Of a stretch of 64,000 nucleotides of DNA, positions 13,201-63,583 are shown piece by piece (position 1 is the stretch's first letter; each line of letters opens with the position of its first letter). The position numbers were made by a program, and so were the translations under genes. The notes under the pieces were generated by a model. The model worked only from the letters and a program-made list of their open reading frames with translations, had not been told where the DNA came from and ran no database searches. This DNA comes from Candidatus Binatia bacterium. Its GTDB lineage: Bacteria; Desulfobacterota; Binatia; Bin18. The stretch covers positions 2,560,001 to 2,624,000 of the forward strand of contig OY761159.2 of assembly GCA_963664395.2 (NCBI GenBank), given 5' to 3'.

Positions 13201-13296
13201 GGGGAAGGATACGGCCCGGTGGCTGTACCGGTCTTCAAAACCGAGTTGCGTGGCGTAACGTTGCGCGGATGGTTCGACTCCATCCCTTCTCCGCCA
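13201..13296 (+). tRNA. selC: tRNA-Sec (anticodon UCA)
   Basis: 8-bp acceptor stem GGGGAAGG/CCTTCTCC plus GCCA, anticodon loop CTTCAAA, long variable arm, GGTTCGACTCC T-arm; next to selA. Confidence 0.95.
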
Positions 13297-13715: not shown

Positions 13716-15086
13716 TCACGGCACAAGGTCCTGCGGATCAAAAATACCGCGCAGATCGAGCAAAAACGTGTCGTTGTGAATGCGACCTAAAATGGGCGGC
13801 TCGGCCTGCCGAAAACGCTGCGCGATTTTTTCTGCGGATAGTCTGGCATGTCGAACCGCAATGACCTTGCTTGGGAGTTCCTCCTCCGGCAGCGCCCCAC
13901 TGCCGATCTGGGCCGTTGCGTCTTCGACGCTCACATAAAATTCATTGCTAAGCGTCTGCTGTACAAGCGGAACGGCTTGGGCCGCCAGGGCCTCCATTTC
14001 CTTCAACGGTCGAGTCAGCCAACGCAGGGTGGGTAAATCCTGCTGTAAATTCGGTGAACGACGGTACAGGCGCAGTGTGGCGCTCAGGGCCGCCAGCGTC
14101 AGCTTGCCGAGACGTAGCGCCCGTTTGAGCGGGTTCTTTTTGATCTTGTCCACCCATTCTTTGCGACCGACAATGAGACCTGCCTGTGGCCCGCCGAGGA
14201 GTTTATCGCCGCTAAAGGTGACCACATCCGCGCCTTTGGCAATCCGCTCTGCCACGATCGGCTCCTTCGGCAATCCGTAGTGCGACAGATCAATCAGCGC
14301 GCCAGCCCCCAGGTCTTCCATGACCGGGACGGCCTGTGCGTTTCCCATGGCAACTAGCTCTTCCAGCCCAACTTCCGAGGTAAAGCCAATGACCCGATAA
14401 TTGCTGGTATGGACTTTGAGCAAGACACCCGTCCGGGCCGAGATGGCGCTGGCATAATCGTGCGGATGGGTCCGGTTGGTTGTGCCGACTTCGCGCAGCT
14501 CCACGCCGCTCTTGCGCATGACATCCGGGATACGGAAAGAGCCACCAATCTCAATCAGCTCACCACGGGAAACAATCCCTTCCTTCCCCTCCGCGAGCGT
14601 ATTCAGTGCCAATAACACCGCGGCCGCATTGTTATTCACAACAGTTGCCGCTTCAGCGCCGGTCAGTGCAATCAAGTCGGCCTCGACCAGATCGTCCCGG
14701 TCGCCACGGCCGGCCCGAGACACATCATATTCGAGCGTCACGGGTGTGGACGCCGCCCGGACCATTGCGGCTACGGCCTCCTGCGCCAGCAGGGCACGCC
14801 CGAGGTTGGTATGCAACACCGTGCCGGTGGCATTGATGACCGAACGCAAGGGTGATTGGTCCTCGCGCCGGAGTCGGGTTATAATGCGCTCGACCAGGGC
14901 GCGCTCGGCAAGCGGAGCGGTATGAGCGCCGGACATAATATCTTGACGCAACGTCTCCAACACCTGACGAATAAGGTCGGTAATATAGGTTCGGTTGTAG
15001 CGTGCCAGGATGGGCTGAAGCGCTTGAGCGCCCAGAAGTCTTTCCACGGATGGGAGCGCGCGCAGGAGGGGGTGAGGCTTTGTCAT
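13716..15086 (-). CDS. selA: L-seryl-tRNA(Sec) selenium transferase
   Basis: VINATGTVLHTNLGRA, VNNNAAA, EIGGSFR, FSGDKLLGGPQAG. Confidence 0.98.
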   Translation of the reverse strand: MTKPHPLLRALPSVERLLGAQALQPILARYNRTYITDLIRQVLETLRQDIMSGAHTAPLAERALVERIITRLRREDQSPLRSVINATGTVLHTNLGRALLAQEAVAAMVRAASTPVTLEYDVSRAGRGDRDDLVEADLIALTGAEAATVVNNNAAAVLLALNTLAEGKEGIVSRGELIEIGGSFRIPDVMRKSGVELREVGTTNRTHPHDYASAISARTGVLLKVHTSNYRVIGFTSEVGLEELVAMGNAQAVPVMEDLGAGALIDLSHYGLPKEPIVAERIAKGADVVTFSGDKLLGGPQAGLIVGRKEWVDKIKKNPLKRALRLGKLTLAALSATLRLYRRSPNLQQDLPTLRWLTRPLKEMEALAAQAVPLVQQTLSNEFYVSVEDATAQIGSGALPEEELPSKVIAVRHARLSAEKIAQRFRQAEPPILGRIHNDTFLLDLRGIFDPQDLVP

Positions 15087-47540: not shown

Positions 47541-47685
47541 TCCTCGTCAAGGGAAGAAAAATATAGAGGACAGCACGGTTACGTACCAGGTGCGAATTGT
47601 GCGCAAGGTTGCAGACCTTTCCACACTATGCCATTTTCCAAAGGCGCTAAGAGTCCTGATTTTACACAGAAAAGGGAGCTACCAG

Positions 47686-48765
47686 ATGAAGTTCGGCATG
47701 ATGTATGAGATCCAGATCCCTGAGCCTCACACCCCCAATATTGTGCAAGACACCTATAAACAGGTCATCGCCCAGGTCATGCTGGCCGAGGAGATGGGCT
47801 TTGAGTATTTCTGGACGGTCGAGCATCATTTTTTGACCGAGTTTTCCTACTGTCCCGCCCCGGAGGTCTTGTACGGTGCGATCTCGCAGCGGACCAAGAC
47901 CATCCGGATCGGTCATGCGGTTGCGCTGCTGCCGCCCCAGTATAATCATCCGATCCGGGTGGCGGAACGCGCTGCGGTCCTCGACCTGTTGAGTGACGGG
48001 CGGGTCGAACTCGGCACGGGACGCTCGACCACGCTGATTGAGATGGAAGGGTTCGGGATCGATCCGGAAGATACCAAGCCGATGTGGGAAGAAGCCATCT
48101 CGATCATCCCGCGGATGTGGCTCGAAGATCCCTTTTCGCACGAGGGGAAATATTTCAAGATTCCGCCCCGCTCGATCATTCCCAAACCAGTCCAGAAACC
48201 CCACCCGCCCTTGTGGGTGGCCTGTGCCCAGCCCGATAGTTTTACGGCCGCCGGTAAGAAAGGCATTGGCGCGTTGTGCTTTCATATCGGCCAACCGGAG
48301 GAACTCGCCCGCCGGGTGCAACTCTACCGGGAAGGCATAGCCCAGGCCGAGCCGGTTGGTGCCTTTGTGAATAACCAAGTTGCCGCCCTCGGTATCGTCC
48401 ACTGTGCGGAAAGCGACAAACAGGCCCGAGCAGTGGGCGGCCCGGCGGGCGAATGGTTTCTCAATAAAACCCTCCAACTCTACCGGCCCTGGCAAGAACA
48501 GGGGACGAAGATACCCGATTCCTACAAATTTGCAGTGGACTCAGTCCGTGGGGAACGATCGGGCAAGTCGTTGGACGAACTCATTGAAGGCGGTATGTTT
48601 TGCATGGGCGATCCGGATAGCTGTATTCGGACACTCAAGAAATATGAAGAAGCTGGTGTTGATCAAGTGCTGTGCTTTATGCAGTTCGGTGGTATTCCGC
48701 ACCAAAACATTATGGATTCAATCCGCCTGTTCGGGAAATATGTGGTCCCGTATTTTCGACCATAA
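47686..48765 (+). CDS. LLM-class flavin-dependent oxidoreductase
   Basis: WTVEHHF, HPIRVAER..LD.LSDGR, PKPVQKPHPP. Confidence 0.93.
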   Translation: MKFGMMYEIQIPEPHTPNIVQDTYKQVIAQVMLAEEMGFEYFWTVEHHFLTEFSYCPAPEVLYGAISQRTKTIRIGHAVALLPPQYNHPIRVAERAAVLDLLSDGRVELGTGRSTTLIEMEGFGIDPEDTKPMWEEAISIIPRMWLEDPFSHEGKYFKIPPRSIIPKPVQKPHPPLWVACAQPDSFTAAGKKGIGALCFHIGQPEELARRVQLYREGIAQAEPVGAFVNNQVAALGIVHCAESDKQARAVGGPAGEWFLNKTLQLYRPWQEQGTKIPDSYKFAVDSVRGERSGKSLDELIEGGMFCMGDPDSCIRTLKKYEEAGVDQVLCFMQFGGIPHQNIMDSIRLFGKYVVPYFRP

Positions 48766-50270: not shown

Positions 50271-52678
50271 TCAGTCACCGGTGAAGTGATAGGTCAATTC
50301 CAGACCGAACACCCGGCCTCTCATCAACGGCGAGAGGGTGCCGGTGGGCAGTTGGATGTCCGTCCCGAACTTCGCGTAGTCCAGCAGGTTTTTGCCGTAC
50401 AGGCCGACCACCCACTGGCTGTTGTCGACATGCATATCCACCCCGGCCTGTAACATCTTCTGCTGCCGGTTGAAGCCGGTGTTGTCGTCGTTGGTATACT
50501 CTTTATCGCGGTAGGCGTAGGTGAAACGCGAAGCGAGCCGAACGCGAGTGCCGACGCGGAGATTGTGGAGCAGGCCCAGGCTATAGGTCCAGTGCGCGGC
50601 CCGCGGCGGTTCGAGGTCCTCGTCCCTACTGTCCAGCTTACCGTCCCGGGTGAGGTCGAACTTGACCTTGGTGTAGTCCGACTCGACGTAGCCGAGCGAG
50701 CCGAGCAAGACCAAGCTTGGGGAGAGGACCACCATCCCCTCCATTTCCAAGCCCCAGAATTCGGCGTCGGCCGTATTCCGAATCACCTGCACGAGGTTCT
50801 GCACCGTCTGTATGGTCGGCCGTCCATCCACAAAGATGATGACAGGCCGACCCGTGATCGGGTCCGGGGCAGGCAGGTTCTCGCCGAAAGTCAGTTCACG
50901 TTGCAGATCGTCGACGAAGTTGTAGAAAAACGACGCGTTCAGGCGGACGCGATCGCCGAAGGTCTTCTTGAAGCCGATCTCGAAATTGTCGATCTGCTCT
51001 TCGTCAAACGCCTCGGTACCAAGATCGCGGGCGACCTTCAGGCCGAGCGCCTCCAGCCCGGCAATCTCCGCGTCCGACAGTCCCTGGGTCAGATCGAAAA
51101 ACGAGTCGCGCAGATTATAGCCGCCGGACCGGAAGCCGCGCGTCCAGTGGGCGTAGATCAGCGTCTCCTCGTCGAGCCGATAGGTCAGCCCGATCTTAGG
51201 CGACAGACTGTTCCAGCTTGCCTCGTCTTTGAAATGGATAGGACAGTCGGGGCCATCCACCATGTGACACTGGATATCCCTAGTTCGGAGGATATTTGTA
51301 ATCTGTGCGGCTTTCTCTTCATGAGTGTGGCGCAGCCCTAGGGTCAGCGTCAGCCGGTCGGTCAGGTCGTAGTCCCCGGCGGCGAATAGCCCGAACGTCT
51401 CGACGTTATAGATACCGCCGCCGTTGAATTCTAAGATGTCGCCACTGGCGTCACCGAACAACCGCTGTTCGTGATAGTAGAGATCGTTCTGAAAATAGTA
51501 GAAGCCGGTCGTCAGGAAGAGCCGGTCGAAGAACATCCCGCTGTAGCGCAGCTCGTTGCTGAACTGCTCCGCGGCTTGTGCGCCGCCTCCATGGAAAAAG
51601 GTCAGCGGCGTCGCGTCGGTATCGCTCAGACCATCGCCCATCCCCTCGCGCCAGCCGAAGATATTGGTAATTGTGCCGTTACCGAATGGGATGTCCCAAT
51701 CCGCCCTGGCGTTGAAGAAGTTGATATAAGTCTTCAGGAAGCCCTCTTCGTTGACGGCGAAGTCGTGGCTGTCGCGCTTGAAGTTGAACAGAGGATGGGA
51801 CAGGCCGGCACCGTTAGTATGCGTCTGAGCCGCGGGTCCGTCGCCGTCGAGATCCTGATATTCATAGCGGAGCGTCAGGCGCAGGCTGTCCGTGGGTTGC
51901 CAGGAGATGACCGGCCGCAGCATCAGCGTGTCCTGCACGCCGAACGCCTTGCCGGTATGCTCATTCTCGAACCAGCCCTGATCCTGATTGGAATACACAG
52001 TGAAGCGTGCGCCCAGGGTATCGGTCAGCGGGGCGTTGAGCGTGCCCGCGACGTAGACGTTGGGCGCTTTGCCACCGCCTTCCACCGCGGTGCGTAGCGT
52101 GGCTTCGTAGCGGTCAGTCGGCGTTCGGGTGTTGAGCAGGACCGCCCCGCCCACGACGTTACGGCCAAACAGGACGCCTGCGGCCCGCGCAGGACCTCGA
52201 CAGCCTCCAGATCGAAGGTGTCGTACAGCATCGACGCATTCGAGCCCATATACACGCCATCGATAAACACGCCGACCGGCGGGTCGATACCCGGAATAGA
52301 GCTGTTGATACCCAAACCACGAATCGAGAAGTTCGCGATGCCGCGAGCCGTACCAACATCGTCCAGGGACACGTTTGGCATGCGTATTGACAGACTGGTC
52401 AGGTCGCGCACCTTGAGCGCGTCAAGCTGTTCGGCGTCGAAGGCGGTGACCGGCAGCGGCACGTCCTGGATCAGTTGCTCCCGCTTTTGGGCGGTCACCA
52501 GGATATCTCTCAGGTGCGTAACCCCTTTCGCCGGGACAGGTTTGTTGAAATCCTGAGCACTTGCCGCCGGCAGCGTGGCGATCCCCAACAGCAGGATGAT
52601 GCTGAGCGCGATCAGACGCCGGCCGACGCGCGTTGCAGTCATGCGATCGTCCGATTGTTTCGGTTGATATTCCGCCAT
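50271..52678 (-). pseudogene. TonB-dependent receptor with a 1-bp frameshift near 52177
   Basis: ILVTAQKREQ.IQDVP, RGLG, EVLRGPQ then (G)VLFGRNVVGGA; restoring one G (CAG GGC) joins 52025-52678 to 50271-52154. Confidence 0.88.
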
Positions 52679-52786
52679 TCCGGCAATGGAGTATTCGCTT
52701 TCGAGAGGCCAATCGTCGCGTGCCTTGCGCCTGATGAGCGGCCTAGTATAGCATGCGCCCGAATCTCACAAAGGAGGACAGCATAT

Positions 52787-53671
52787 ATGCAAGTTGGATA
52801 TTTCGCGATTGGCATTGGGCTGGGCGCAGACCCCGAGGTGGTCAGCCTGACGGCGCAAACGGCTGAGCAAGCAGGTTTTCATTCACTCTGGGCGCCCGAA
52901 CACGTAGTGTTGCTCGACCAGTACACCTCAAAATACCCGTATTCAGCCGATGGGCGATTACCCATGCCAACCACGCAGATTGATATTCTTGATCCATTTA
53001 CCGCGCTGACGTATGCCGCCGCGCAAACCACAACGATTCGCCTGGGAACCGGCATTTGCCTGCTGCCCGAGCGCAACCCGGTGGTCACCGCAAAAGAAGT
53101 CGCCAGTTTGGATAAGCTTTCGGGCGGGCGTTTTGATTTCGGTGTCGGCGTGGGCTGGCTGGCTGAAGAGTTCAGCGCGGTGGGCGTCCCCTGGGAACGC
53201 CGGGGGCAACGCACACGTGAATATCTCCAGGTCATGAAAATGCTGTGGACCGAGGAAGAGTCTGAATTCAGCGGTGAATTTTGTAGCTTCCCCAAAGTTC
53301 GTTCGTATCCCAAACCCGTCCAGAGCCCGCATCCGCCGATTATTTTCGGGGGCGAGAGCAAACCCGCGCTGCGGCGCGTCGGGGAGGTCGGAGATGGCTG
53401 GTTTGGGGTGAACGTCACGCCCGAATCAACCAAAGAGCATATCGAGCGGATGAAAGGCTATGCCGAAGCAGCCGGACGTGACTCCAGTCAGTTTCACTAT
53501 TCCGTTTCTACGGGTATTGGCATGCCGATTACAATGGATGAGGTCAAACGGTTCCGCGACCTGGGCGTGCATCAGATCATTGTTGGTGGATTTTCCGAGA
53601 ACGCGGATGCCGTCAAGGGCGATATCGAGAAACTGGCCGAACAGATTGTTGTGCCGGCGGCGGACTTGTAG
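52787..53671 (+). CDS. LLM-class (probably F420-dependent) oxidoreductase
   Basis: WAPEHVV, YPYS.DG, LDPF, GVGWLAEEF, GDGW; AAGGAGG RBS. Confidence 0.9.
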   Translation: MQVGYFAIGIGLGADPEVVSLTAQTAEQAGFHSLWAPEHVVLLDQYTSKYPYSADGRLPMPTTQIDILDPFTALTYAAAQTTTIRLGTGICLLPERNPVVTAKEVASLDKLSGGRFDFGVGVGWLAEEFSAVGVPWERRGQRTREYLQVMKMLWTEEESEFSGEFCSFPKVRSYPKPVQSPHPPIIFGGESKPALRRVGEVGDGWFGVNVTPESTKEHIERMKGYAEAAGRDSSQFHYSVSTGIGMPITMDEVKRFRDLGVHQIIVGGFSENADAVKGDIEKLAEQIVVPAADL

Positions 53672-54720: not shown

Positions 54721-55842
54721 CTACACGCTTGCCGCGGCGAACTCGGCCTGTTCTTTGGGCAACTGAAAGGCCGGGTCGGTCTGAAGCACTGGTAATACTT
54801 TCTCGGCAAAGAGTTGGAAGCTGCGATTCAGTTTCGGAGCCGGCAGGCCGCCGAAAGCGAACGTGCCGACCATGTGGTCGAGCGCGACCGTTTCGTGGAT
54901 ATAGCGAATTTTTTCCAGCACCTGTTCCGGCGTGCCTGCCGCGTGCAGGCTGCGGAAGAACTTGATCGCCTTGACCTTGGCCTGCTCATCCGCATTGAGC
55001 TTGGCGTAGGTTTTTGCCATCTTGCCGTAAAACTCATACCCTTTGACGTTTTTCAGCTTACCCGAAGAAAAGCCGTAGTGGTTTTCGATGGAGTCGAACA
55101 GCGTGCCCATGTAATGCTGAGCCAAATCTTCGGCTTCTTTGGCATCGTCAGAAACCAACACGTTGAAGAGTCCGATAGGCGGGCGAGGTATGATGTTGTT
55201 GGCCTGAGCAGTCTCGCAATAGCGTTGATAATCCGTGGCGGTGTCCTCCCAACTCCGCTGGGCGATAATCAATACCCCAAAGCCCATCTTGGCCATGATG
55301 TCCGCGGACTCCGGGCTGACCGACGAGGCGTAGAAGCGAGTCTCGGGATTGGAGATGGGACGCGGGCGGACTTGAATATCCGGGATCTGATAATACGTGC
55401 CGTCGTACGAAAAGCTTTCCTGGGTCAGGCCCATGCGAATGATGTCGGCGCATTCGACAAAGCGCTCGCGCGACTCGTCCATGGGAATCCGGAAGCCGGC
55501 GTATTCGACTATGGCCGCACCGCGCCCAAAGCCGAAAATAGTCCGTCCGCCTGACACCAAGTCGAGCAGGGCGATTTTCTCGGCTATTTCGACAGGATCG
55601 TGCCAGGGCAACACGATCACCGCGGTGCCGAGTTGAATCTTCTTGGTCCGACCGGCCATATAGGACAACAACTGACACGGGTCAGGCGACATCACATAGC
55701 CGGTGAAATGGTGGTCAAGGCTCCACAGCGAGTCAAAGCCATAGTCTTCCGCTTTATCCGCCAGCGACAGCTCTTCCTGATAGGTTTGCAGGTCCGGCTT
55801 GCCGTCAAAACTGGTCAACTGCATGATCGTCCCGACTTTCAT
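54721..55842 (-). CDS. LLM-class flavin-dependent oxidoreductase
   Basis: WSLDHHF, LGTAVIVLPWHDPV..AE, GFGRG. Confidence 0.93.
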   Translation of the reverse strand: MKVGTIMQLTSFDGKPDLQTYQEELSLADKAEDYGFDSLWSLDHHFTGYVMSPDPCQLLSYMAGRTKKIQLGTAVIVLPWHDPVEIAEKIALLDLVSGGRTIFGFGRGAAIVEYAGFRIPMDESRERFVECADIIRMGLTQESFSYDGTYYQIPDIQVRPRPISNPETRFYASSVSPESADIMAKMGFGVLIIAQRSWEDTATDYQRYCETAQANNIIPRPPIGLFNVLVSDDAKEAEDLAQHYMGTLFDSIENHYGFSSGKLKNVKGYEFYGKMAKTYAKLNADEQAKVKAIKFFRSLHAAGTPEQVLEKIRYIHETVALDHMVGTFAFGGLPAPKLNRSFQLFAEKVLPVLQTDPAFQLPKEQAEFAAASV

Positions 55843-56089
55843 ACACCCCTCCTTTTTTTCCTGGGTTTTTTCTTGGGTAAAATAAAGCGCCTATTATAGG
55901 AGAGCAAAGTCAATTACACAAACGGTCGAAAGAACGTCCCGTTGCGTCAGCCGGTCCCTCCGCACCCCGCCTCGACTGAGACACGCGAACCGGATACCGG
56001 CACAACTTTGAACCTTATTATCCTTTCTGATATAGCGGCCAGGGCAATATCACACCAAGAACCGCATTTCGGGAAAATATGGAGAACGC

Positions 56090-57244
56090 ATGGCAGACCA
56101 CGATATCAAGAACGCAGTCCGGGACATTGAGTGTCCGGTGTTTGAGAACCCGGCATTCACCACCCCCCCGCCGTTGGAAGAAGCGACGGTGGCCATTGTC
56201 ACCTCGGCGTCGCTGCATCATCCCGACCAGGACGATTTTGCGGCGCGTGACACGAGTTACCGGGCGCTGGACGCTGCCCGGCGGGATTATATTGTCGGCC
56301 ACTGGAGCCCAAACTTCGACAGTTCCGGTGTGGCGGCCGACCTCAACGTTGTCTTCCCCATTGACCGGCTGGATGAACTGGCCGCGCAAGGAACAATCGG
56401 CAAGGTGGCGGACACGCATCTGGCCTATGCCGGCAATCAGTTCGATCTGGCCCAGATTCGGATGGACGGTGGACCGGCAGGCGCCGCCCTGCTCAAGGAA
56501 CAGGGCGTTGACGTTGTGCTGCTGACCCCAGTGTGACCGCTGTGCACGCGTACCGTGTGTACGCTGGCGCATATTTTTGAGGCGGCCGGCATGGCGACGG
56601 TGGCGTTCGGCTCGATCCGTCAACACATGATCGGCACGGCGCCGCCGCGCGGGCTGGCGTGCGACTTTCCGCTGGGCCGGCCCATTGGGAAACCGAATGA
56701 CCCCGCGTTTCAGCATCGCGTTCTGGCGCACGCCTTTTCGATGCTGAAACGGACCGAACCTGGAGTTGAAGACTTTGCCGAGTCCATTTCGGACGAAAAA
56801 ACCGAAGTGCTGGCATGTCCTCTTCCACCACGCCACGACCCGGACGCCCATCCCGCAGTGGATGAAGCGCGCGGTCTGCGGACCGCCTATGAGCGGGCGA
56901 TCAAAAAATATGGCAATCGGGTGGGATCCGGTCGCGCCATCAGCGCGGCCGATGTCCCTTCTGCCCTTGAGGCGTTTATCCGTATTGGCCAGGGAACGCC
57001 GTGGAAGGAAGCCAAGATTCCTGGCGTACCGGCCCGCGTCGCCCAGGACATTCGTGGCTATTATGAGACGGCCGCATTGGCCATTGCCGACCACACGCCG
57101 GCAGCCTGGGCCGGGCTGCGCTGGTTTCGAGACTCCACCCAAGCCGGCAAAGTCATTCGCGCCGCGCAGCAGGCCATGAAAGATGCGGATGTGCGGCGCG
57201 ATCTGTGGTTTTTTCTGCTGCCCATGGACAGCATGCAGAGCTAA
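56090..57244 (+). CDS. PrdB/GrdB-like selenoprotein (Sec at codon 149, UGA 56534-56536) with C-terminal extension
   Basis: ORFs 56090-56536 and 56555-57244 are in frame; readthrough gives GVDVVLLTPV-U-PLCTRTVCTLAHIFEAAG (UxxC); hairpin follows; selA/selC are in the window. Confidence 0.9.
56537..56569 (+). promoter_or_regulatory. Bacterial SECIS candidate
   Basis: GCGTAC-CGTGT-GTACGC stem-loop (56548-56564), loop 17 nt after UGA and containing GU; possible lower stem CGCT/GGCG. Confidence 0.7.
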
Positions 57245-57254
57245 GGAGGGAGAT

Positions 57255-57737
57255 ATGGCGTCTTTCTTATCAATGGACGATCCTACATTTTGGAAGCAAT
57301 ACCCGCAGGAACTGAAAGAGCTGGTCGAACTGCCCTTAGACGGGGTGACCGGACTGGCCTATTTCTTACTCGGCGATAGGAAAGACAACCCGCCCACGGT
57401 GGTGACGCTGCGGATGGGCCCGAACTGGACCCTGCCGCGGCACGCCCACGACTGCCATCGGTTTGAGATTGTCGTGCAGGGCACGCTGGACGTGGGTGAG
57501 CGCATCCTCAAGCCCGGTGACGTGATGATGACGGAGCCGGGTGTGGCCTACGGCTCGCATATCGCCGGACCGGAGGGCTGTACCACCTTCGAGATTTTCA
57601 GCAACCATCGGGGGTCCTACGTCACCCTGGTTGATACCCCGCAGGGTCGCATCGAGTGTGATGTCTCCACCCGAGAGGGCATGAAGAAAATGGAACAGGC
57701 CATGCTGCGCGATATGGAGGCCAACGGACAGGCGTAG
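57255..57737 (+). CDS. Cupin-domain protein
   Basis: LPRHAH...RFEIVVQG...PGD......YG.H.AGPEGC...EIF; AAGGAGG RBS overlaps the selenoprotein stop. Confidence 0.85.
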   Translation: MASFLSMDDPTFWKQYPQELKELVELPLDGVTGLAYFLLGDRKDNPPTVVTLRMGPNWTLPRHAHDCHRFEIVVQGTLDVGERILKPGDVMMTEPGVAYGSHIAGPEGCTTFEIFSNHRGSYVTLVDTPQGRIECDVSTREGMKKMEQAMLRDMEANGQA

Positions 57738-57777
57738 AAGATACCCCCATCCTTGCAAGTGATAACGACTTAGATTC

Positions 57778-57812
57778 CTTCTCCCTTGAGGGAGAAGGCC
57801 AGGATAAGGGTG
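57778..57812. repeat. BoxC-like palindrome CCTTCTCCC-TTGA-GGGAGAAGG
   Basis: 9-bp arms followed by a purine-rich tail. Confidence 0.55.
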
Positions 57813-57984
57813 AACCGGAGCAAACCGGTCTCTCAAGTCTTGATCCGACCATCAGTCTGGAGTTTTACGGTCTCTCGTGAAACGTGAAGACGGAGAAATG
57901 GCGCAGCCACGAATGGCGCAATCACGCCGGTTGCCTGGCCCTGCCTTCCGGGGTAAGACCGAGCGATCAAAATAACCGAGAGGT

Positions 57985-58659
57985 ATGATGAGCATGGCAT
58001 CAGACATCACGTTTCACTACTTCCACGGGAGAGGAATCGGAGAGCCGATCCGCCTCCTGTTCACTGTAGGTGAGATAGCGTTCACCGACCGGCGCTATAG
58101 CGTAGACGAATTCGCCAATATGGCGGCGTTCAAAGCCCAGCTCCCGTTCGGACAAATGCCCGCCCTTGAGGTGGACGGCGTATTCCTAGGTCAGACTGAC
58201 AGTATCGCTCGTCTGGCCGCGCGCCTGGCCGGCTTGTATCCGTCGGACCCCATTGAGGCGGCTCGCAGTGATATGATCGTCGTGCATCAAGCCGAAATCC
58301 AGTCAGCCCTGGCCAAGATGAGCTTCGACGGTGTGCCCGGCGCTCCGGGGACGAAAATGGTGCCGCAAGAAGAGCGGCAGAAACGCATCGCCACGTGGGT
58401 TGAGACCACACTGCCGGGAGCCCTGCTGCACCTGGAAAAGCTCTCACAGGAGGGCTGTATGGTGGGCTCACAGCTCTCCTGGGCCGATATTTGCGTCTTC
58501 AATCGGTTGAACCAACTGCTCGACATAGATGCAGACGTGTTGCACGCTGATTTCCCGAAACTCCAGGCGGTGTACGAACGGGTCGATACGTTGCCGCAAA
58601 TCCAGATCTGGATACAGGCGCACCAGGATGACTATCCCAGATTCAGCGCGGGCGGCTAG
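57985..58659 (+). CDS. Glutathione S-transferase (sigma/alpha-like)
   Basis: YFHGRGIGEPIRL, PFGQMP.LEVDG, QT.SI.R, G..LSWAD. Confidence 0.9.
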   Translation: MMSMASDITFHYFHGRGIGEPIRLLFTVGEIAFTDRRYSVDEFANMAAFKAQLPFGQMPALEVDGVFLGQTDSIARLAARLAGLYPSDPIEAARSDMIVVHQAEIQSALAKMSFDGVPGAPGTKMVPQEERQKRIATWVETTLPGALLHLEKLSQEGCMVGSQLSWADICVFNRLNQLLDIDADVLHADFPKLQAVYERVDTLPQIQIWIQAHQDDYPRFSAGG

Positions 58660-58669
58660 AACAAACGCG

Positions 58670-59971
58670 CTAATGAAAGGGATACGGCAAAAGATGCTCT
58701 TCTGCATTCAGGTCGTGGATTGAAGCACAGCCCAGGAGCCGCAGGGTATCCTCGATTTCTTTTTTCAGGATGGCAAACGCCTTGCGCACCCCCGCTTCTC
58801 CACCCGCCCCAAGACCATACACATACGCCCGTCCGGCCAAGACCGCATTCGCACCGTGGGCTAGGGCAATGACGACATCTGCGCCGGAACGAATGCCGCC
58901 GTCCAGCAGGATTGTCAGCTTGGAGTCCTTGAGCTCGGCCGCGATGTCTTTCAGGACGTATAAGGTGGGGTAGACGCGATCCATCTGGCGGCCGCCGTGG
59001 TTGGAGATGATAATGCCGTCCACGCCATGTTCGACCGCCAGCCGGGCATCTTCGACACACTGCACGCCCTTCACGAGGATAGGCTTGTCCTTCCCCCAGA
59101 TTTCCCGAATCCAGGCCAGATGTTCCCAGGTGACAACCGAAGTGCGCAGTTGAGCCCCAACGTCCGCGTAGGGCATGGGCTGTCCGTCGTTCAGCATGAC
59201 ATTGCGGAATTGCATCATCCCGCCGTCCGCGTAAAAGCTCTTCAGCCAGGAGAGATGGGAGATCATTTGCGGGCCAAATTTCAGTTTCTGGAAGGGCGTG
59301 CCGTTAATCGCCTGTGAGGCACCTAACCACTCGTGCCGGGCGCGATTCCCGGCGACCGCGGTATCAATGGTCAGCACCAGCGCAGAATAGCCGGCATTTT
59401 TCGCCCGTTCGATCCCGCGGGCGGCGACCTCTTTTCCCCCAACGAGATAGAGTTGATACCAACACGGTCCAGGTGAGGCGGCGCTGACTTCTTCCAGGTC
59501 GGTCCCGGTCAGGGTGGACAGTGTGCATATCGTCCCGGCCTCACCGACCGCCTTGGCAGCGACGGCTTCTCCGCGCGGCCAGAGCATGCGGGTGCTGCCT
59601 ATCGGAGCGGCGATAACCGGCAGCGCCAGGGTGTGTCCCAGAATTTCGGTCCGCATCTCTATGGCGTCAAGCCGGACCGCACATCTCGGCTTAAAGCGTT
59701 CTCTTTGAAAGGCTTCGACATTATCTCTGAGCGTGATTTCATTATCGGCCCCACCCCGATAGTACTCTCTCACAATCGGTGGTACGCGCTGCTCCATCAC
59801 CTGCCGCAGATGATCGATGGTGACGCATTTTTCAACCGCTCTGGCCCAGCGCTTCGCACTTCTGGCATGCGCGCGCCGGAGGTAGGGTTGCAGCAGCCGC
59901 AGCCCGGCACTGTGTCCATTGAGAGCAGGCGTGTGCTCAAGATTGCGTTCGAGCGGCTGCGGGTGAGTCAT
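58670..59971 (-). CDS. FMN-dependent alpha-hydroxy acid oxidase/dehydrogenase (LldD-like)
   Basis: GGADNEITL.DN, WYQLY, SNHGGRQ, DGGIRSG.D, GRAY. Confidence 0.93.
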   Translation of the reverse strand: MTHPQPLERNLEHTPALNGHSAGLRLLQPYLRRAHARSAKRWARAVEKCVTIDHLRQVMEQRVPPIVREYYRGGADNEITLRDNVEAFQRERFKPRCAVRLDAIEMRTEILGHTLALPVIAAPIGSTRMLWPRGEAVAAKAVGEAGTICTLSTLTGTDLEEVSAASPGPCWYQLYLVGGKEVAARGIERAKNAGYSALVLTIDTAVAGNRARHEWLGASQAINGTPFQKLKFGPQMISHLSWLKSFYADGGMMQFRNVMLNDGQPMPYADVGAQLRTSVVTWEHLAWIREIWGKDKPILVKGVQCVEDARLAVEHGVDGIIISNHGGRQMDRVYPTLYVLKDIAAELKDSKLTILLDGGIRSGADVVIALAHGANAVLAGRAYVYGLGAGGEAGVRKAFAILKKEIEDTLRLLGCASIHDLNAEEHLLPYPFH

Positions 59972-62554: not shown

Positions 62555-63583
62555 TCAGCCGAACTGCGGCATGACCTGGCTGGCGAACAACTCCATTGAA
62601 CGCTCGGACTGAGCCTGAGTGAGACTGCCCCAGGCGAACGACACCAGAATATAGTTGCAGCCGCTGGCCTCGAAGAAATTGGCAATCTCGTCCTGCACCC
62701 GGCTGGGAGAGCCGACTATCGCAACGTCCAGACTTCGGGCGACCTGGAGGTCGGGCGTGAACAGGGTGTGGGCCACGCCGAAGTCGAGCCACAGCTTTTC
62801 AATGTTGGCGTAGTAATCTTTATACGCCGGGGTGGCGATGGCTTCGGCTTCCTGGTCGGTGCCTGCCACAAAGACATGTCGGAACGCGCCCATTTTTGGC
62901 GTTTCGAGGTGTGGGTTGAGGTTCAGTGGATTGTCTCGATTGTGTGACCACATCTCTTTGTACTGGGCGGTCAGATCCTTGAGACCGTTGTTTGGTCCGC
63001 CGCTCGCCATATGCATGCCGCGCTCGGCGGCAAAGCGGAGGCTGTTCGGGTTGACCACCCCGTACCAAAAGGGTGGGTTGGGCGTTTGCTTGGGGTGCAG
63101 CTCCATCGGCACATCGGCGCATTGGTAATACTTGCCTGCGTATGTGAGTCGCTCCTGGTGCAGGCCGGCGCTGACCATCTCCAGCGCTTCTTCAAACATC
63201 GCCCGCGAGTGCAGAAACGGTACCTCAAAATAGGCCTGCTCAAACGGCGACACACCCCGTCCGACCCCGATTTCCAGGCGGCCGTTGCTCATATGATCGA
63301 GCATGCAGATTTCACTGATCAGTCGCAGCGGATGATACAGCGGCAGCAAATACACCAGCGGTCCCAAACGAATGCGCTTGGTGTGTTGTATGGCCGCCGA
63401 CAGGAAGACCCCCGGAGACGGCGCCATGCCCAGCGGCGTGGCGTGGTGTTCGGCCAGGTGATAGCCGTAAAAGCCGGCTTCATCAGCCATCTTGAGGAGT
63501 CGCAGGCGCCCGTCATACAGTTCACCCAGCGAGTCCGCTCTGCGTTCCAAGTGATCAAAAATTCCAAAATCTACAGTGCTCAT
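62555..63583 (-). CDS. LLM-class flavin-dependent oxidoreductase
   Basis: [31 protein letters not shown]. Confidence 0.93.

Follow-up and report, generated by a model that had tools for sequence, protein, structure and literature searches.

Do two short reading frames near the end of a bacterial contig segment hide a single selenoprotein, and what would such a protein do? The frames lie in a 64,000-nucleotide (nt) stretch of contig OY761159.2 (positions 2,560,001 to 2,624,000 of the forward strand; assembly GCA_963664395.2) from a Candidatus Binatia bacterium, hereafter the window, in whose coordinates positions are given. The open reading frames (ORFs) 56090..56536 (148 amino acids, aa) and 56555..57244 (229 aa, GTG start) share one frame. 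Reading TGA 56534-56536, the sole in-frame TGA in the gene, as selenocysteine (Sec) joins them into one protein of 384 aa with Sec at position 149 (U149), as the first-pass annotation of this DNA had proposed. Residues 139-155 then read GVDVVLLTPV-U-PL-C-TRT, and the C-terminal motifs quoted in that annotation (CPLPP, DEARGLR and QDIRGYYE) are present in the read-through protein. GGAGA precedes the start ATG at 56090, and the N-terminus MADHD... agrees with the M-[ASTG]-D start of most homologues; a promoter and terminator scan returned nothing useful. The two "hypothetical" frames are one selenoprotein gene, mis-annotated. Its parts are as follows.

56090..57244, plus strand: long-form PrdB-like selenoprotein gene, 384 aa, from ATG 56090 to TAA 57242-57244.
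56534..56536, plus strand: UGA read as selenocysteine (U149) in the motif PV-U-PL-C152, from TGA/Cys conservation.
56544..56568, plus strand: stem-loop resembling a selenocysteine insertion sequence (SECIS), from an RNAalifold consensus and covariation.
56171..56791, plus strand: PrdB/GrdB-homologous alpha/beta domain, about residues 28-234, from profiles, alignment and an AlphaFold2 (AF2) model.
56795..57241, plus strand: helical C-terminal domain, family-specific, residues 236-384, conserved in alignments A2 and A4 and modelled by AF2 at a predicted local distance difference test (pLDDT) of 86-93.

The reading of the TGA is carried by its conservation. A scan of 185,579 species genomes yielded 303 relatives, from which 80 loci were kept for counts. 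All 80, from at least seven phyla, have TGA at the U149 codon (79 by motif scan and one, L077, by hand), and 81 genomes sampled from the class gave 14 matches in 13 genomes, each with exactly one TGA. The homologues are not pairs of separate genes: TAA, TAG or a frameshift was found in none of the 80 + 14 copies. Among the 120 best matches in protein collections, nine are full-length homologues (381-458 aa, at least 91% coverage), and all nine carry Cys at the U149 column, which gives an invariant C-x-x-C. Homologues with UGA and homologues with Cys at position 149, which it had been suggested to look for, therefore both exist. The remaining 111 of the 120 are C-terminal pieces of 214-245 aa, the named ones called "hypothetical protein", as expected from a gene caller that stops at the TGA. 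The suspicion that gene callers split a hidden selenoprotein was thus well founded, and it documents a systematic annotation error in which most database entries of the long-form family are C-terminal fragments. The alignment to the PrdB model TIGR04483 runs across the TGA (residues 12-221, E 1.7e-36), and P150-L-C-T-R-T155, encoded between the TGA and the next possible start, is among the best-conserved parts of the protein. Judged by this conservation, TGA 56534-56536 is a selenocysteine codon.

Bacterial SECIS elements, as described for Escherichia coli fdhF and in the bSECISearch literature, are stem-loops directly downstream of the UGA with GU in the apical loop. The stem at 56548-56564 has both features. 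As had been pointed out earlier, it begins 11 nt after the UGA; its core of six base pairs (56548-56553 with 56559-56564) closes a 5-nt loop (56554-56558, CGUGU) with an invariant GU (G28 and U29), and outer pairs join 56544-45 to 56567-68. The RNAalifold consensus of 77 distinct sequences is a 6-bp stem, GCGUAC/GUACGC, with the loop N-G-U-N-N and the two outer pairs. Pairing holds in 99.7% of 616 cells (alignment A3), compared with at most 58.8% of cells in slid registers. Compensatory double changes occur in 14 cells at two pairs (U-A to C-G in nine, A-U to G-C in five), a covariation score reached by none of 500 shuffles, although this statistic is inflated because the aligned sequences are related and hold fewer events than cells. 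In our reading of the alignment, these changes appear to couple a silent position of one codon with an amino-acid replacement in the codon it pairs with, so that coding constraint alone would not give them.

The genome also holds the machinery to decode the codon. As had been noted, tRNA-Sec and selA lie within the window itself.

13201..13296, plus strand: tRNA-Sec, anticodon TCA (ARAGORN; Rfam RF01852, 66.7 bits).
13734..15065, minus strand: selA, selenocysteine synthase (TIGR00474, 596.3 bits against a cut-off of 267.9; genome coordinates G000:C1:2573734-2575065).

A genome search for the two further components, also proposed earlier, found selB (389.8 bits) and selD (316.3 bits), and tRNA-Sec, SelA, SelB and SelD all score above curated cut-offs. 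The selD gene encodes a 755-aa fusion (L009:1393-3657, minus strand, which is G000:C1 about 4506183-4508447), with an N-terminal Pyr_redox_2 domain (92.9 bits) before the AIRS/AIRS_C selenophosphate synthetase part.

To which family does the protein belong? It scores above the threshold of Pfam GRDB (PF07355; 29.8 bits against a cut-off of 22, residues 28-146), also in the genome scan, and below those of the PrdB equivalog TIGR04483 (125.9 against 300 bits) and the selenoprotein-B subfamily TIGR01918 (36.8 against 65.45 bits). The active-site motif U149-P-L-C152 is invariant and follows the Sec/Cys-x-x-Cys pattern. The 238-position PrdB model is exhausted by residue ~221, so residues ~236-384 are extra. 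The earlier description of a PrdB/GrdB-like protein with UxxC was correct, and so was that of an additional domain, which is conserved and comprises ~145 aa. In 35 sequences, 47 columns spread over both domains are invariant and include, besides Cys/Sec, six Arg and two His. In the N-terminal domain they include H71, S73, D77, D84, N86, U149, C152, R154, H161 and E164, then R187, C191 and F193-P-x-G-R-P198 (FPxGRP); in the C-terminal part they include C243, P246, R248, E259, R269, D320, R322, Y325 and W345. This pattern would suit an enzyme with a defined predicted pocket.

An AF2 model of the whole protein (35 sequences) is confident (pLDDT 92.6, predicted template modelling score 0.91), although near residues 231-250 its pLDDT falls to 77-81. 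The N-terminal domain is modelled as an alpha/beta sandwich in which UxxC opens a helix that follows a beta-strand. A Foldseek search against the PDB gave no match at E <= 0.001, and sequence and profile searches of the PDB found no solved structure for the protein. The C-terminal domain, which opens at the invariant C243-x-x-P-x-R, is helical also when modelled alone (pLDDT 86.2), and its comparison with 48,161 chains gave a best Z of 4.1 and none of at least 5. Its profile has 244 matches among 1.84 billion representatives at E <= 0.001, 50 of them at <= 1e-30. Most of the 150 matches listed are pieces of ~200-246 aa (domain from ~83) or proteins of ~380-420 aa (domain from ~240), and many others among them are short fragments. 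Seven matches stood out by length or domain position; four of the seven carry GRDB and the others have no Pfam domain. Two candidate fusions of the domain, P0146 and P0267, were rejected as apparent Arg/Pro-rich frame run-ons without a Pfam domain. Judging by where its profile matches, the helical C-terminal domain is specific to the long-form family.

The sole fusion architecture found when longer proteins were searched is that of P0122 and P0123 (708 aa, from an alphaproteobacterial metagenome-assembled genome, MAG), a Cys-form PrdB-like protein fused to a TauD/TfdA Fe(II)/2-oxoglutarate dioxygenase, which belongs to a sister group of the window protein. With the window protein they share 38% identity over residues 14-275, CPxCTR, an equivalent of the C243 cysteine and then a helical region with similar motifs (hhalign of the C-terminal domain against that region, E 0.22). 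Unlike the window protein, P0122/P0123 have the Cys form, do not keep C191 and end in TauD (E 6.7e-58).

The closest characterised family is PrdB (TIGR04483) of Clostridium sticklandii and Clostridioides difficile, with which the protein shares homology over a ~220-residue core, UxxC at the same place and an interchange of Sec and Cys. It departs from PrdB in its score (125.9 against 300 bits) and in its length of 384 aa, with a ~145-aa helical domain missing from the 238-position model; a PrdA proprotein was found neither in the genome nor next to any of the 80 loci, and its hosts are not known as amino-acid fermenters. GrdB, GrdF, GrdH and FarB share Pfam GRDB and the Sec position. In these proteins reductive cleavage takes place at the alpha-carbon of a carboxylate, and the same chemistry would by analogy be expected of the window protein. 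GrdB-type proteins, as far as the available descriptions go, differ in having ~430 aa with an extra N-terminal half and UxxCxxC. They act together with GrdA, GrdE/GrdI and GrdC/D, and no GrdA was found in the window genome. GrdB-type models score 30.9-44.3 bits on the window protein, against cut-offs of 602-800.

Two shorter PrdB-like selenoprotein genes lie in the same genome, L012 (G000:C1:3753831-3754439) and L013 (G000:C1:1853549-1854124). Like the window gene, they have one in-frame TGA, here in (P/A)-(V/L)-U-P-V-C-H-Q, stand alone, and score below the PrdB cut-off (179.7 and 104.7 bits). Their products (about 299 and 269 aa) are only 30-34% identical to the window protein and have neither the helical C-terminal domain nor C191 nor the C243 motif. 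A luciferase-like monooxygenase (LLM) gene on the same strand lies immediately upstream of L013, and L012 is flanked by Exo_endo_phos and SDR genes.

Relatives of the long form are labelled Candidatus Binatia (the closest, 82-93% identity), Entotheonella, Pseudomonadales/Azotimanducaceae and Acidimicrobiia, and also Chloroflexia, Acidobacteriota and Myxococcota, among others; the Binatia, Acidimicrobiia, Pseudomonadales and Entotheonella carriers come from marine or sponge samples. The gene has a scattered distribution in the class: 13 of 81 genomes carry it, most of them in the window's own family (8 of 9). A maximum-likelihood tree of 35 sequences mixes phyla, placing Binatia with Entotheonella, next to Gammaproteobacteria, and nesting a Chloroflexia-labelled copy inside Acidimicrobiaceae. 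It requires two to three Sec/Cys changes, with the nine Cys forms on one side. The mixed tree and the patchy occurrence fit horizontal spread among marine or sponge-associated bacteria. Some labels and sequences call for caution. The Chloroflexia-labelled L076:6001-7104 contains ~35 unrelated residues and a shortened end, probably from assembly frameshifts, and the MAG labels Enterobacteriaceae (L023, L024) and Bifidobacterium (L092) look like binning or labelling errors because of their neighbours in the tree.

As a whole, the explanation that we favour, and hold to be probable if only just, is that the gene encodes a cytoplasmic 384-aa selenoprotein that belongs to a distinct subfamily of the selenoprotein-B (GrdB/PrdB, GRDB) superfamily, does not serve as the B subunit of a Stickland reductase for D-proline or glycine, and would work as a self-contained selenol/thiol-dependent reductase. 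SelB would decode UGA 56534 as Sec, aided by the stem-loop 11 nt downstream. The U149 selenolate would then attack a bound small-molecule substrate, which by family analogy may carry a C-X bond next to a carboxylate, in a predicted anionic pocket where the two domains meet; a defined anionic pocket is suggested by the many invariant Arg, His and Asp residues. C152 would resolve the adduct, giving a selenenylsulfide that thioredoxin or glutathione, as a general thiol system, would reduce again, and the helical domain would take the place of a substrate-binding partner. The literature offers two points of reference: GrdB, PrdB and FarB are described as catalysing reductive C-N or C-F cleavage of alpha-substituted carboxylates (PMC13188914, PMC10838667), and the betaine partner GrdI is described as lacking pyruvoyl processing, a system that evidently works with no pyruvoyl partner (PMC10838667).

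Several observations count against this explanation. Known family members act in multi-subunit complexes, and a stand-alone enzyme breaks this precedent. We infer both the substrate class and the catalytic cycle with its reductant by analogy. Fold comparison of the whole model returned only generic Rossmann/flavodoxin-like folds for the N-terminal domain (LacI/periplasmic-binding, SDR, CheY-like; best Z 9.0). At the RNA level, the 73-nt stretch at the stem is no more stable than shuffles (z = 0.23), so that the stem is supported by conservation and covariation, not by energy; a Val codon also dictates the GU of the loop, and the inflation of the shuffle statistics noted above belongs here too. 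The same applies to the partner searches described below, which had no positive control.

A more far-reaching form of the favoured explanation, which we regard as doubtful, is that the long-form marine "proline reductases" in general are single-polypeptide selenoenzymes in which the helical domain replaces the substrate-binding role of PrdA, GrdE or GrdI. In a bolder sub-version, Cys243, which lies in the lower-confidence linker of the model, might be a self-processing site or a third redox Cys supplying the carbonyl or resolving function.

What else could such a protein do? It might be a redox relay, that is, a thiol-disulfide or selenenylsulfide oxidoreductase acting on protein or low-molecular-weight disulfides or on peroxides, with no C-X cleavage of a metabolite. 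We consider this rather unlikely. In the model UxxC is placed as in thiol oxidoreductases, at the start of a helix that a beta-strand precedes, and Table 3 of Zhang et al. (PMC1088965) counts PrdB as a thiol-dependent redox selenoprotein. The lack of a conserved operon partner, the varied gene context and the patchy distribution (13 of 81 class genomes) are likewise typical of, or compatible with, housekeeping or stress redox proteins. Against this, the 47 invariant columns over both domains, with many Arg, His and Asp, suggest a specific ligand pocket; every characterised relative, as far as the sources cover them, cleaves a C-X bond; and a simple relay would leave the dedicated 145-aa domain unexplained.

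The gene neighbourhood bears on a further possibility, a lineage module in which the selenoprotein would act with a translationally coupled cupin and a glutathione S-transferase (GST) in catabolism or detoxification. The neighbours named in the first-pass annotation, a cupin coupled through a ribosome-binding site, a GST and a divergent LLM, are all present.

57255-57737, plus strand: cupin-like gene, 160 aa, preceded by GGAGG at 57245-57249 and starting 10 nt after the selenoprotein TAA.
57985..58659, plus strand: GST gene (GST_C_3 54.8 bits, GST_N 22.9 bits).
58670..59971, minus strand: FMN-dependent alpha-hydroxy-acid dehydrogenase family gene (FMN_dh 372.8 bits).
54721..55842, minus strand: divergent LLM gene (Pfam), one of at least 150 in the genome.

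Their arrangement is suggestive at close range. GGAGG and the 10-nt spacing stand before the cupin ATG, the cupin is directly downstream in all eight loci of at least 89% identity, GST and FMN_dh are each kept in nine, and the TauD/TfdA fusion in the sister group gives precedent for a pairing with a non-haem-iron or cupin-type oxygenase. The module is nonetheless improbable. The cupin follows the gene in 8 of the 80 loci, all of them Binatia copies at least 89% identical, and these eight close kin amount to one evolutionary event. In the Binatia copies at 82-83% identity (L022 and L082), an autotransporter-lipase lies downstream instead. GST is linked in 9 of 80 loci, FMN_dh in 9 and the orthologous LLM in 6, and 70 of 80 loci have neither cupin nor GST nor FMN_dh. 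Insertions of the size of insertion sequences separate cupin and GST in several relatives, and the cupin-like protein itself scores below the Pfam gathering scores of Cupin_2 and Cupin_7 (a match to the PDB cupin 4e2g has E 1.2e-05).

In 20 of the 80 loci an LLM-like gene is present within about 6 kb. At least 150 LLM matches (183 candidates) are spread over the 5.04 Mb of the window's own genome, about one per 30 kb, so that a nearby LLM is expected by chance, in ~30% of loci by our estimate. Cupin, GST and LLM were accordingly rejected as a conserved system (8 of 80, 9 of 80 and chance level), and the functional coupling to the selenoprotein that had been proposed for them was not supported. 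Nor is any neighbour conserved family-wide, a check that had been called for: ORF calling, clustering and Pfam searches of the 20 immediate neighbours, with an ORF calling that was greedy and is crude in high-GC DNA, revealed no common neighbour across the 80 loci, and the cupin is limited to close Binatia. In other lineages these 20 neighbours are SLT, SDR, thioesterase, nucleoside deoxyribosyltransferase, amidase, GDSL-lipase autotransporter, LLM, Rieske oxygenase, PhoX, TetR, MFS (twice), amidohydrolase, secreted-repeat lipoprotein, polysaccharide deacetylase, SfLAP and AlaX-like proteins and three without a Pfam match. The long-form family has no conserved partner gene.

Some further features of the neighbourhood were observed. 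Four LLM genes lie in the last 17 kb of the window (47590-48762, 52475-53668, 54721-55842 and 62555-63580), and another LLM match of the genome, G000:C12:5846-6751 (minus strand), has a single in-frame TGA and could be a pseudogene or a selenoprotein candidate. Several close Binatia relatives (L014-L019) carry 1.0-3.5 kb of extra DNA between the LLM and selenoprotein genes or between cupin and GST. Its ORFs are about 400-415 aa, and members of their clusters from other loci (L020, L085) are Amidohydro_2 and MFS proteins. The corresponding window intervals, 55843-56089 and 57738-57984, are without this DNA, which indicates that local gene order is fluid.

Could the protein still be a true B component of a D-proline, glycine or betaine-type reductase, with a partner elsewhere or too diverged to be recognised? 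PrdB is its best family match (E 1.7e-36), and the Cys forms are named "D-proline reductase (dithiol) PrdB" in databases. The genome (5.04 Mb, 95.9% complete, not closed) gave no match to PF09338 (PrdA/GrdE), TIGR04480 (PrdA) or PF04723 (GrdA), in searches that also had no match in 14 control genomes and hence no positive control. A PrdA/GrdE-like gene lies beside none of the 80 loci. The earlier statement that no pyruvoyl partner is nearby agrees with these negatives, which extend it to prdA, grdE and grdA in the genome and among the neighbours of the 80 loci, again with searches that had no positive control. The adjacent PrdA that marks a PrdB, and the GrdA/GrdE that mark a protein B, are accordingly not found in this genome. 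Scores below the cut-offs (125.9 against 300 bits for TIGR04483, 36.8 against 65.45 for TIGR01918) and the C-terminal domain missing from the 238-position PrdB model also speak against a B component. Furthermore, the marine or sponge hosts (Binatia, Acidimicrobiia, Pseudomonadales and Entotheonella) are not known to be Stickland fermenters. Together these points make a B component very improbable.

That the locus holds no selenoprotein, only two separate genes or a nonsense-broken pseudogene, is scarcely credible: automatic annotation splits the gene and the stem region lacks an energy signal, but TGA, never TAA, TAG or a frameshift, stands in 80/80 and 14/14 copies across phyla, protein conservation is continuous over the codon, and Cys homologues, a covarying stem and full Sec machinery accompany it.

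How new is such a protein? Less so than the first-pass annotation implied, since marine "proline reductase PrdB" selenoproteins with UxxC have been catalogued since 2005 (PMC1088965, PMC2398784). According to the available text of these surveys, the family (UxxC, pfam07355) ranked third in abundance among the selenoprotein families of the Sargasso Sea, where it comprised 42 genes (PMC1088965), and had 235 Sec and 110 Cys members in the Global Ocean Sampling data (PMC2398784); in a 2021 survey, PrdB made up 6.4% of marine selenoprotein genes (PMC9402790). Reviews of 2022 and 2026 treat the family plainly as D-proline reductase (PMC9312934, PMC13188914). The window gene resembles this marine family of Zhang and Gladyshev in UxxC, pfam07355, the marine setting and the excess of Sec over Cys forms, and very probably falls inside the surveys' "PrdB" bin. 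The surveys treat the family as proline reductase, and the available sections of surveys and reviews make no mention of a long form, a C-terminal domain or a missing PrdA. Among the literature on PrdB-like and GrdB-like proteins, as far as its available text goes, only the GrdB-like fluoroacetate reductase of Synergistota turned up. The kind of protein is thus known, and its long form, stand-alone state and role appear undescribed.

Since 2005, surveys have placed "proline reductase PrdB" within the top six or so selenoprotein families of the ocean by abundance, yet its carriers are not known to ferment proline, and no PrdA was found here. The present locus offers a single genome in which a clean, full-length gene is accompanied by complete Sec machinery. 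Its long-form subfamily is marked out by 47 invariant columns, its structure model is confident, and natural Cys homologues can be expressed without Sec machinery. The substrate of the marine PrdB-like selenoproteins thereby becomes directly testable. If the more far-reaching form of the favoured explanation, doubtful as it is, were true, aerobic marine and sponge-associated bacteria could carry out the reductive cleavage of alpha-substituted carboxylates (osmolytes of the betaine, haloacetate or sulfonium/arsonium type, for instance) with no multi-subunit complex.

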